Source: Escherichia coli (lineage in GTDB: Bacteria > Pseudomonadota > Gammaproteobacteria > Enterobacterales > Enterobacteriaceae). Taken from it: a stretch of DNA of 64,000 nucleotides. Shown in pieces: positions 33,326-36,300 of this stretch. Within the stretch, counting starts at the first letter, position 1. Each line of letters opens with the position of its first letter. Made by a program: the position numbers. The stretch is taken from NCBI RefSeq assembly GCF_003018115.1, contig NZ_CP027458.1. One strand, given 5' to 3'.

Positions 33326-36300
33326 TCATTTCAATAAACCTGGCGACCTCTGCCATCCCTTCCTGATTTTCAGCCTGCCAGCGTTCAGCACGCAGTCGCC
33401 GGGCTTCGTTCTGCATGGTCGTACTGACCAGACCGGAGATATTCACGTCATACGCCTTGAGCAGCTGATAGCTGTCGCTGTCAACTGTCACTGTAATACG
33501 CTGCTTCATAGCACGCCTCTTTTGACATACTTCTGGTATGCATATCAGTATATATTATTATGATGCAAAAATCAGCGCATTAATACACATACTGTTATCT
33601 GGCTTTTAGTAAGCCTTATTTATTTTACCTTACATTATGTTAACCAATAAAAATTAAAATCAGACTTATAAAAACAAAGCGTAATTATCGAATGACCATT
33701 TCCGGCAGATCCGATTTTTCTGTTATTTACGGGTTTCCGGAAGTGTACCACGCTGAGGAAATCATCATATTGCTGTTTTCCTCCCCTGCGCGGCGCATCA
33801 CAGGTCAGGGAGATGACACAATATATAGTGCCATGAGCAGCTGAACTAAGCACTACATGTTGTGCTTACGGGAGATAGCGCTGTGCGGAGGGAAAGGAAG
33901 ATCCTGAACAGCCGGAAACCGGATCTGTGCGGCAGAGAACGGGCAGGAGATATGATAATTAAGCAGCACACATAAAATCATATCAGATATGATTTTCACC
34001 ATTAAATACAAAACCATATCTGATATTATCAGAAATCAATAACACACAAATCATGCAGGATGTGATTTTTACCTTTAAGAACATTATCAGATGGAGCGTG
34101 CAGGATGGATGAAGAAAGGGTGTTTTCACTCAGCTATGAACAACTAACCCAGTTTGCGGAACGACGCATCCGGGAATGCAATCTGGACAGCCAGGGCGCG
34201 ATTTATCTCTGCGAGTCAGCCAAAGCCGGAGCCGTGCTGATCTTCTGGCATGAACTGGCCATAAATGGCTATGCCTCAATGAATGCCATAAAGAGACAAG
34301 AGCTCATTGACGCCGACGTTCAGCGCCTCAGAAAGCTCATCTGGCCGGAGGATGGCTGGAAATGACTCAGAGCCGCCGACCGTCGCCACTGCAGCGGAGA
34401 GTGCTGATTGTGCTGGCTGCCCTTGATGAAAAACGACCGGGCCCCGTGCTGACGCGGGACATAGAACGGGTGCTGGAGCGAAGCGGGGAAGCCCCGGTCT
34501 ACGGGCCAAACCTGCGCGCCTCCTGCCGTCGTCTGGAGGATGCCGGCTGGCTGCGTACCCTGCGCGCTCCGAACCTGCAGCTGGCAGTAGAGCTGACGGA
34601 GGCCGGCCGGGCTGTGGCACAGCCTCTGCTGCTGGCAGAACAAGACCGCCTCCGGGCAGAACAGCGTGCGGCAGAAGTCGTCGTACTGCCGCTGGTCCCG
34701 GCAGCAGGTCTGCCCGCAGATGGCACTTCTGCCACTGATCTGGAGGTGGAGCTGAACGGCATAACGTATCAGGGCTGCCGTGGGGATTTTGTGGTGCGTC
34801 TCGACGGCAGCACCTGTCTGCAGTTATGGAATAAAGAAGGCAGGGTTGTACGCCGGGAGGGCGATCCGCTGGAAGTGGCGCAGTGGCTGCAGGCCTGTCA
34901 CGATGCAGGAATGGAGGTTCGTGTGCAGGTTAATGAAAGCATCACCCCGTAAAAACATGCCTGCACGGTTTACACATCATCCCATGGTGGCAGCCGGTTA
35001 ACTTTCCTGCGCCACCAGTGGAAAGAGGCCGTGAGCAGTCCGAACAAAAAACCCCCCGTGATACTTATAATTATGGCCTCACCTGCCACCATTCCTGACG
35101 GCCCCCAGTAGATAAACCACATTGCACATCCCCAAGAAATGCCCCATAAGCTCCCCATCAACAGCGTGACCTGCCAGAACGGCATAAAGGGTAATGGCGG
35201 AAGCCGGATACCCAGCCGCCAGAGAATACACAGAAGAGGAGGGGCATAATTGCTCCGCCACATCTTTTTGCTATCCATCAGGGCAATGGCCCGGGCTTTT
35301 TTCTGCTCAAAGGTCACAGGAGCACCTCCGTTCCATGATGTAAACGTGACACAGCTTATTGTTATTGATTATTATTATCATGCTGTGGTTATGTTGTCAT
35401 GCATCAGTACACTGACAAAAGTACAAAAGAAAGGAAAACAGGCAGATGAACAGAAAATATTATTTTAATAATATGTGGTGGGATGGGTGACGGGGGGATA
35501 TATGCTGTATATGTCATGGGATTATGATTTTAAATACAGATTACTGTTCTGGTGTATTTCTCTCTGCGGAATGGTTTTGTATCCGGTTGCAAAATGGTAT
35601 ATTGAAGATACAGCTCTGAAATTTACCCGGCCTCATTTCTGGAACAGCGTTTTTTTTGCTGATACACCTGGAAAAATGGGATTGCTTGCTGTTTATACGG
35701 GTACTGTTTTCATATTATCTCTTCCGTTAACTCTGATATATATTCTTTCTGTTATTATAAAAAGGCTGTCTGTAAGATAGACAGCCTTAAATACCCCAGA
35801 ACTTATTCGCTTTTTCCACAAGCGTTTCATCAATCAGTGCACCGATGACAGCCATCAGTAAACCATATCCGATAATGCCTAAAGCGCTTCCGGTAAGAAT
35901 ACTGAAGACCAGAGCAACAAGAGCCGTTGCGGCATTACCTGCTATGATGGTTTCTGTTTTAACAAAAAAAGGACGCCAGTTACCTGTCCGAGCAGCCTTA
36001 CCAAACTCAGTGATCCAGTCGGCAAAATTTGTAATTTTTCCTGCATATCCCAGTCCGCGACGGAACCTGTTCAGATTAGACGATATATCAGACAGTTTCA
36101 CAGCCATAGCCCCCGCAGAAAGAGTACCTGCGAGAGACGATATTCTGTACGGTTCATATATTCATCCGAGGCAGGAATATCGGCCCGGTACAATCTGTCC
36201 GGGCCGGATGGGTAATTTACAGGATGTTCGCGATGGATTTAGCCAGCTGCTCTTCCAGTACAGGCTTCGCTTCTTCAAACTTCAGGTTAACCTTGTTGGC

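Follow-up and report, generated by a model that had tools for sequence, protein, structure and literature searches.

An autorepressor-like two-gene cassette, ydfA-ydeA, beside the rfsF recombination site of enterobacterial plasmids

What is the function of two small, translationally coupled plasmid genes that are preceded by a regular set of palindromes? This question is raised by the ydfA-ydeA locus in a 64,000-nucleotide stretch of Escherichia coli DNA (contig NZ_CP027458.1, assembly GCF_003018115.1), which is called the window throughout. The window, which shares 99.9% identity with NZ_CP024291, derives from an IncF-type plasmid of Shiga toxin-producing E. coli with ehx, traT, and RepFIB. 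An initial annotation of the locus proposed an acquired, autoregulated, GC-rich unit beside ccdAB, possibly a toxin-antitoxin, exclusion, or defense module. The evidence gathered here indicates that ydfA-ydeA is probably a negatively autoregulated two-gene regulatory cassette, a judgment that applies to its DNA-binding and autorepression core. Autorepressors with their operators are an ordinary kind of element; this family is uncharacterized, very widespread, and equipped with two orphan domains.

Both open reading frames (ORFs) are real and are arranged as initially described. The first, ydfA (34105-34365, + strand), encodes 86 amino acids and is preceded by a ribosome-binding site (GGAG, 34093-34096). 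The second, ydeA (34362-34952, + strand), encodes 196 amino acids, and its start codon overlaps the ydfA stop codon as ATGA. Coupling of this type, as either ATGA or TAATG, is kept across the family. The RefSeq label for both ORFs is 'hypothetical protein', and the names YdfA (86 amino acids) and YdeA (196 amino acids) given in UniProt and GenBank are also those of annotated IncI plasmid records. No function is assigned to either gene in the literature found to mention both names. They are legacy plasmid ORFs, forming a named but uncharacterized family. Both genes are under purifying selection, with ratios of nonsynonymous to synonymous substitution rates (dN/dS) of 0.22-0.39 at synonymous divergences (dS) of 0.4-2, and of 0.25-0.39 for ydfA in divergent comparisons.

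The DNA upstream of ydfA contains three palindromes of 21 bp with the consensus AAATCAT-N7-ATGATTT. Site O1, AAATCATATCAGATATGATTT (33975-33995; -130 from the ydfA ATG), matches at all 14 half-site positions and sits inside a perfect 23-bp palindrome at 33974-33996 (11+1+11). Site O2, AAACCATATCTGATATTATCA (34011-34031; -94), matches at 10 of 14 positions and overlaps the -10 element described below, and site O3, AAATCATGCAGGATGTGATTT (34048-34068; -57), matches at 13 of 14 and lies downstream of the predicted transcription start. The initial annotation had correctly recognized three related palindromic repeats, but it missed a fourth element, the lone half-site O0 (ATATGAT, 33950-33956), whose seven columns are all invariant in nine lineages. 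The segments 33974-33996 and 34048-34068 share AAATCA-N9-TGATTT, and exact copies of AAATCAN9TGATTT occur at only two places in the 64 kb, both upstream of ydfA. When one mismatch is allowed, there are four matches versus 0.31 expected, a number reached by none of 100 shuffles.

Conservation of these sites extends well beyond the window. All plasmid lineages sampled (IncI-gamma, ColIb-P9, R64, and plasmids of Klebsiella, Citrobacter, and Enterobacter) carry the three sites at -130/-131, -94/-95, and -57/-58, with matches to the consensus at 11-14 of 14 positions, for which shuffled upstream DNA gives 0.02-0.1 such sites. The O2 equivalents in the other lineages score 12-13 of 14. In the IncI, Klebsiella, Citrobacter, and Enterobacter plasmids that keep these positions, the proteins are 60-70% identical and dS is 0.7-2. 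In an alignment of nine lineages, the invariant columns are the half-sites of O1-O3 together with O0, and variation is confined to the 7-bp centers and the DNA that separates the sites. The same palindrome is also found upstream of stand-alone or distant ydeA genes, at -59 in locus L007, at -82 and -46 in L013, and at -74 in L016.

A candidate ydfA promoter is intertwined with the palindromes (34002-34029, + strand). It comprises a -35-like TTAAAT (34002-34007), an extended -10 TG (34021-34022), and TATTAT (34024-34029), with a predicted transcription start near 34036. The -10 element lies inside O2, the -35 element lies between O1 and O2, and O3 is just past the predicted start. No other promoter-like element is conserved. 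Thus, conserved putative operators are found over a -10-like element at the regulator's own candidate promoter, and the initial impression of an autoregulated unit has held up at the sequence level. A -10-like hexamer (TATTAT or TATGAT) is present at -81/-82 in all 12 lineages compared, and 9 of these have the extended TG. A -35-like hexamer is located 16 bp upstream of the -10, and the two form the top-scoring or tied-top pair in 8 of the 12. The candidate promoter also agrees with a BProm prediction for plasmid pUA1135, which places the promoter 103 bp and the start 69 bp upstream of ydfA (PMC12111858). A search of positions 33400-35500 against Rfam returned no known RNA, the lone match being a sub-threshold one to CrcZ (18.7 bits vs. 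a gathering score of 95).

The protein encoded by ydeA has features expected for the recognition of such sites. Its structural model (mean predicted local distance difference test score, pLDDT, of 87) contains a winged helix-turn-helix fold at residues 9-78, a long helix at 80-104, a variable linker of low confidence, and a compact beta-rich C-terminal domain at 127-190 with five strands, one helix, and one strand. The model agrees with the initial description of a winged-helix N-terminus joined to an unassigned C-terminal domain. Residues of the putative recognition helix and wing are near-invariant (Y47, N50, R52, C55, R68, L78, T79, and G82), which fits the occurrence of the same palindrome upstream of distant ydeA genes.

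Despite this familiar fold, YdeA cannot be placed in a known family. Sequence profiles yield matches to MarR, DtxR, PaaX, and AbiEi_4 that are all sub-threshold. There is no significant Pfam or NCBIfam match, the best being PaaX (E 7e-3) and AbiEi_4 (E 0.055-0.057), and NCBIfam VpaChn25_0724 reaches 17 bits vs. a cutoff of 65. PADLOC gives no match for YdfA and only JetA for YdeA (E 0.0027 over 49 winged-helix residues). When Pfam, NCBIfam, PADLOC, and PHROGs were searched with both proteins, their long forms, and all alignment members, nothing significant was found except phrog_19460, a function-unassigned family that matches the YdeA winged helix (E 6e-7). Compared with the winged-helix repressors MarR, PadR, HxlR, and viral F-93, YdeA differs in belonging to no Pfam or NCBIfam family (best E 0.007-0.06), in having an extra 70-residue beta-rich C-terminal domain with no relatives outside its own family, in its obligate-looking small upstream partner, and in its three to four sites at a 36-37 bp period. 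A looser parallel can be drawn with BrxR and CapW, in which variable, sometimes defensive cargo is headed by a winged-helix repressor that also has a small, beta-rich, sensor-like domain. However, YdeA is much shorter than these proteins of winged helix-WYL-WCX layout. No WYL domain was matched by Pfam in any of 21 members, and no WYL or WCX domain was detected by Foldseek.

YdfA and the YdeA C-terminal domain were modeled together as a chimera, with a flexible linker between them, to keep the winged helix from dominating the searches. The AlphaFold2 model of YdfA is a three-helix bundle (helices 11-24, 31-55, and 61-79; pLDDT 84-96), and its closest structural matches are designed protein binders. 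With three helices and no N-terminal strand, it is ruled out as a ribbon-helix-helix protein. The C-terminal domain of YdeA reaches a pLDDT of 93-97 in the same model. A Foldseek search of AFDB50 with the chimera gave 52 significant matches, each to a YdeA or YdfA protein from Enterobacterales, and sequence profiles of the Protein Data Bank gave no match to YdfA alone or to the C-terminal domain alone. Both are orphan domains, with no relatives beyond this plasmid family of Enterobacterales.

The fixed offsets of the palindromes, their overlap with the promoter, and their occurrence upstream of stand-alone ydeA genes make an autorepressor cassette the best reading of the locus. YdeA would bind the AAATCAT-N7-ATGATTT sites O1, O2, and O3 as well as the half-site O0, probably as a dimer that is presumably held together by its long helix. 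Given that O2 covers the extended -10, O1 abuts the -35, and O3 follows the predicted start, bound YdeA should shut off the ydfA promoter. Translational coupling implies that YdfA would be made together with the repressor, and YdfA most likely is either a protein-binding modulator of YdeA or the effector of the cassette.

Several observations weigh against this interpretation. A generic sigma-70 scan of the window called no promoter upstream of ydfA, and the candidate promoter has a weak -35 and depends on its extended -10. The half-sites are spaced 14 bp from center to center, which is wider than for many dimeric helix-turn-helix repressors. Also, O2 is degenerate in the window, and no further strong operator sites are present in its 64 kb. 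The chimera model shows no confident sign that YdfA docks on the C-terminal domain, although this was a weak test (predicted template modeling score, pTM, of 0.47). Finally, no co-directional gene follows ydeA in the window, so the regulation of cargo genes cannot be the local function of the cassette.

The position of the palindromes could suggest another explanation, in which they are known ccdA-side sites of the RepFIA region, either rfsF or oriV-1, and the ORFs are incidental. The order of the RepFIA region is rfsF, oriV-1, ccdAB, resD (PMC4398462), and the repeats lie <600 bp from ccdA. The crossover site for the resolvase ResD is, however, a different 28-bp element. This rfsF-type site, AGATCCT GAACAGCCGGAAAC CGGATCT (33899-33926), has outer arms matching AGATCCG-N14-CGGATCT at 13 of 14 positions, is the only one in the 64 kb (0.07 expected), and lies 48 bp upstream of O1. 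In the published rfsF pattern, AGATCCGNAANNNNNNNNTTNCGGATCT, crossover takes place in the 8-bp spacer (PMC8299605), and the palindromes share no arm sequence with this pattern. The inner right arm of the window site (AAC) differs from the TTN of the published pattern, and the site may be a hybrid left by arm exchange.

Comparison with the F plasmid separates the palindromes from the replication region as well. Homology to F (89%) extends from ccdB across the intergenic region and ends at 33904, inside an inverted repeat and before the palindromes, none of which is found in F. The cassette was initially described as lying beside ccdAB; it is close to these genes but not directly adjacent, because ~390 bp between ccdA and rfsF (33510-33898; 89% identical to F and oriV-1 by position) and the 28-bp rfsF intervene. 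Within this segment, at 33759, is a 12/14 operator-like sequence that is also present in F, and given that F has no ydeA, this likeness is probably due to chance. Furthermore, the palindromes lie at a constant distance from the start of ydfA and accompany ydeA into contexts without ccd or resD, and both ORFs are under purifying selection. The proposal that the repeats are rfsF or oriV-1, which the initial annotation had itself raised, is thus contradicted by the data and retains almost no probability.

The same junction reveals how the cassette was acquired. Homology to ColIb-P9 (94%) begins at 33902 and extends rightward over ydfA, ydeA, and the DUF6404 gene, which is frameshifted in ColIb-P9. 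In contrast, window positions 33683-33904 match ColIb-P9 elsewhere, 3.5 kb away and next to yedA-resD. The unit was therefore acquired, as had been suspected, and the route was exchange: the ColIb-P9 homology starts exactly at the rfsF junction, and the palindromes belong to the side that was swapped, together with the cassette. Exchange of 'Delta' and 'Col' arms at rfsF has been described for IncI1 plasmids, and the arm concerned contains ydeA (PMC8004404). The block in the window that holds a truncated colicin Ia gene, an immunity gene, ybaA (DUF6404), ydeA, ydfA, and rfsF is such a Col-type arm. The cassette would be the first unit of a variable arm beside rfsF, where ResD-type recombination would swap arms between IncF and IncI plasmids, and swapping of this kind would explain both the foreign composition and the 94% identity to ColIb-P9. 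The GC richness initially ascribed to the whole region is marked only in ydeA (63.6% G+C vs. 48.1% for the window), whereas ydfA (51.7%) is no richer than ccdA and ccdB (~53%).

The third gene of the block, ybaA (34970-35317, - strand), encodes the convergent membrane protein that had been noted from the start, a 115-residue protein annotated as DUF6404 (phrog_31022, E 3e-36; no PADLOC match) and separated from ydeA by an 18-bp gap. It is a neighbor in ColIb/ColIa-type blocks and lies outside the core of the cassette. It is found in locus L003, is reduced to a ~70-bp relic of its 3' end in R64, and is missing from the Klebsiella, Enterobacter, and IncI-gamma contexts. This ORF was considered as the historical 'ibfA' of ColIb-P9 (345 bp) and rejected, because that gene lies past ydfA at a distance of 1.5 kb and translates into an unrelated protein. 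Further along, the truncated colicin Ia gene (35787-36107, - strand) retains the last 103 residues (E 2e-55 to 1cii) and adjoins an immunity-type gene (35475-35780, + strand). These two genes are a remnant of the Col-type arm common to ColIb-P9 and pS88. On the other side of the junction, beside resD, a gene for a ParA/MipZ-like ATPase of 214 amino acids and an overlapping ORF of 91 amino acids together occupy 31123-32036 (+ strand); they correspond to IncI yefA-yegA and are likely to form an orphan partition pair.

The proximity of the operators to rfsF raises another possibility, namely that YdeA on its phased palindromes shapes or gates ResD resolution or fusion, much as the accessory sites of cer and psi or subsites II and III of res do for their recombinases. 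In seven lineages an rfsF-type repeat occupies a constant position, -205 to -207 relative to ydfA, and another lies 157 bp upstream of a stand-alone ydeA of 54% identity (L013). The array starts 23 bp from the right arm of rfsF and has a regular 36-37 bp period, and in IncF, IncI, and Citrobacter contexts resD lies next to the locus. However, F resolves at rfsF without ydeA and has pifC at that position, ydeA loci L006, L007, L010, and L014-L016 have no rfsF-like repeat, and the R64 cassette keeps only a degenerate relic, with the intact rfsF 8 kb away. The fixed spacing might also reflect common descent alone. A role in recombination of this type is therefore very improbable.

The distribution of the family helps to distinguish its core from its accessories. 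DNA of ydfA-ydeA is present in 2,097 of 5,426 complete E. coli genomes (~39%), at 2,832 plasmid and 43 chromosomal places, and a YdeA homolog is encoded on at least 5,000 PLSDB plasmids. The family is nonetheless narrow, with 218 representatives among 1.84 billion proteins, and all matches bearing an organism name are from Enterobacterales. The same is true of the ~300-515 YdfA homologs. The profile search for YdfA found 515 proteins, of which those listed are close relatives. Relatives of YdeA at 30-55% identity have no ydfA upstream, from which it follows that the family is built around YdeA, with YdfA as a lineage-specific partner. Very diverged YdfA proteins are still found next to YdeA relatives down to ~52% identity. 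When the window is compared with the IncI-gamma plasmid pHU485 (L002), ydeA is near-identical (dS 0.085) and ydfA is strongly diverged (dS 0.96), a contrast that points to recombination between the two genes and a mosaic cassette. Similarly, at locus L018 YdeA is 69% identical and YdfA has motif-level likeness only.

Several variant forms of the cassette were encountered. Long YdeA proteins (303-428 amino acids; L005, L018, and L019, and proteins P0243, P0247, and P0251) carry one or two extra homologous C-terminal modules. These extensions are unrelated to the genes that follow ydeA in other plasmids and match no family. A widespread 169-residue variant is 27 residues shorter across the long helix and linker, as in L003 (NZ_CP051715, 4744-5510), where the DNA upstream of mid-O3 has been replaced, O0-O2 are gone, and a group II intron gene lies ~1.5 kb further upstream. 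The copy in pETEC_80 (L017, NC_009786, 3611-4543) is decayed. There, a 73-bp deletion equal to the O1-to-O3 spacing has removed two operators, leaving O3 as the sole one and moving rfsF to -133, and YdeA has lost 16 residues of its recognition helix and wing. The pETEC_80 ydfA is intact, and shf-capU-virK follow on the same strand. The stand-alone ydeA of L007 (ENA k141_668071, 4314 bp, possibly a small Rep_3 plasmid), whose product is 46% identical, heads genes for a 69-residue membrane protein and a 131-residue lipoprotein.

These variants bear on whether the pair could be a toxin-antitoxin system, with YdeA as an AbiEi-like DNA-binding antitoxin and YdfA as the toxin, or the reverse, that stabilizes the plasmid or aborts phage infection. 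Coupled small and large genes behind palindromes, located next to ccdAB and elsewhere next to parDE or vapBC, are compatible with such a function. There is also a resemblance to AbiEi of the type IV AbiE system, a protein of ~200 amino acids in which an N-terminal winged helix is joined to a C-terminal domain and which represses its own expression at inverted repeats, as is predicted for YdeA. The AbiEi N-terminal domain (PF13338, AbiEi_4) gives a weak, non-significant match to YdeA residues 18-68 (E 0.057, 14 bits). The C-terminal domains, however, are unrelated. An AbiEii (DUF1814) nucleotidyltransferase ORF was not found in the window or in any sampled context, and the small partner gene is upstream of ydeA, unlike the AbiE toxin gene, which is downstream. 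More generally, Pfam, NCBIfam, and PADLOC revealed no significant match to a toxin-antitoxin or defense family. Distant ydeA genes stand alone without ydfA, and pETEC_80 keeps an intact ydfA despite the damage to its YdeA and operators. The entire operon could be deleted from pUA1135, and the sole reported phenotype is attributable to ibfA (PMC12111858). A toxin-antitoxin function is thus quite improbable, and the initial suggestion of a toxin-antitoxin, exclusion, or defense module has not been borne out; the exclusion phenotype published for the R64-type operon maps to ibfA.

Data from transposon-directed insertion-site sequencing of pEC958 were considered as an antitoxin test but do not apply: neither of the segments covered, 1-50 kb and 118-135.6 kb, contains ydfA-ydeA, and the DNA covered includes the rfsF-adjacent arm. 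In its place, the arm of pEC958 (L026, 118000-135602) carries two vapBC pairs, a HEPN nuclease, a UvrD-like helicase with an ATP-dependent nuclease, and a DUF3800 protein. This content suggests that the rfsF-adjacent arm is a hotspot for toxin-antitoxin and defense genes.

Such a location is one of the points that favor an anti-defense or small-effector operon resembling acr-aca, in which YdfA would be a payload that inhibits a host or defense protein and YdeA would be only an Aca-like repressor that damps a strong promoter. The architecture is shared, though it is the architecture alone: palindromes over a promoter, a small gene, and then the gene for a DNA-binding repressor. YdfA is a compact bundle resembling designed binders, it diverges faster than YdeA, and it has been shuffled relative to YdeA (dS 0.96 vs. 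0.09 with L002; also L018). Other features fit poorly. The upstream gene always belongs to the same conserved family, whereas the upstream genes of acr-aca operons are unrelated and variable payloads. YdeA is a larger, two-domain winged-helix protein whose conserved extra domain is absent from Aca proteins. The cassette also lies outside the leading region, where plasmid anti-defense genes cluster, and no homology to known anti-defense proteins emerged from the profile searches, among which there was no library of anti-defense proteins. Among the alternatives to the autorepressor cassette, a small effector with an Aca-like repressor is the most attractive, but on balance it is unlikely.

If the cassette is an autorepressor unit, its influence might extend to the genes that follow it. 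On the rfsF side its neighbors are stability operons (ccdAB-resD, yedA-resD, or parDE). The genes downstream of ydeA vary, with convergent ybaA in the window, L003, and ColIb-P9, ibfA and a ProQ/FinO-like gene in R64, shf-capU-virK in pETEC_80, and a five- to six-gene cluster ending in hha in Klebsiella. In Enterobacter, a translationally coupled DUF6884/DpdC-like gene follows, which in L018 overlaps the ydeA stop codon (PADLOC E 3e-43). Transcription would read on into ibfA in R64-type plasmids and into the hha-ending cluster in Klebsiella, and in the window the transcript would meet convergent ybaA, with no co-directional cargo. Co-transcription of ydfA, ydeA, ibfA, and the proQ-like gene has been found by reverse transcription PCR, and ibfA is an experimentally shown abortive-infection gene that alone accounts for the phage-exclusion phenotype (PMC12111858). 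The gene order in R64 is the same as in that operon, and IbfA matches HEC-04 (E 1e-41). R64 keeps its ybaA relic after the ydeA stop codon, which implies that ibfA was inserted secondarily into a window-like arrangement. Control of cargo therefore cannot be the sole function of the cassette.

A parallel to this arrangement exists in F, where pifC-pifA occupies the position equivalent to ydfA-ydeA, immediately next to rfsF and reading away from it. The autorepressor PifC is encoded at the head of an operon with the T7-exclusion gene pifA, an order that resembles ydfA-ydeA-ibfA of R64. The two regulators differ in that PifC has 362 amino acids, also serves replication from oriV-1, and uses other operators. 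Homology between YdeA and PifC was rejected (hhalign probability 0.07%, E 0.69), and neither protein resembles a characterized RepFIA-type family of replication or regulation, a concern raised at the outset.

A more far-reaching version of the autorepressor cassette would make it a gatekeeper of the cargo arm next to rfsF. In this scheme, YdfA would be a new small effector or sensor acting through the orphan C-terminal domain of YdeA, and the phased YdeA-bound array would couple expression of variable-arm genes, such as the defense gene ibfA and those for nucleoid-associated modulators of the Hha kind, to the state of the plasmid, and possibly influence ResD fusion or resolution. Such a role is doubtful, and clearly less probable than the autorepression core, but it would, if true, represent an unrecognized regulatory layer on plasmids in ~39% of complete E. 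coli genomes.

Overall, ydfA-ydeA is among the commonest uncharacterized modules on enterobacterial plasmids, and among the plasmids that carry it are resistance and virulence plasmids of the IncF and IncI types from E. coli, Klebsiella, and Salmonella. Its operator sequence is defined, its structural model is confident, and two of its domains are orphans, which makes the proposed function directly testable. Its position is the junction at which cargo arms are exchanged and plasmids fused through ResD/rfsF recombination, and in some plasmids it heads operons that include Hha-type modulators or a gene for abortive infection by phage. Should YdeA control genes of the cargo or the host, the cassette would bear on plasmid fitness cost, phage resistance, and hybrid formation. 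If YdeA regulates only itself and YdfA, then YdfA is a candidate for a new small effector.

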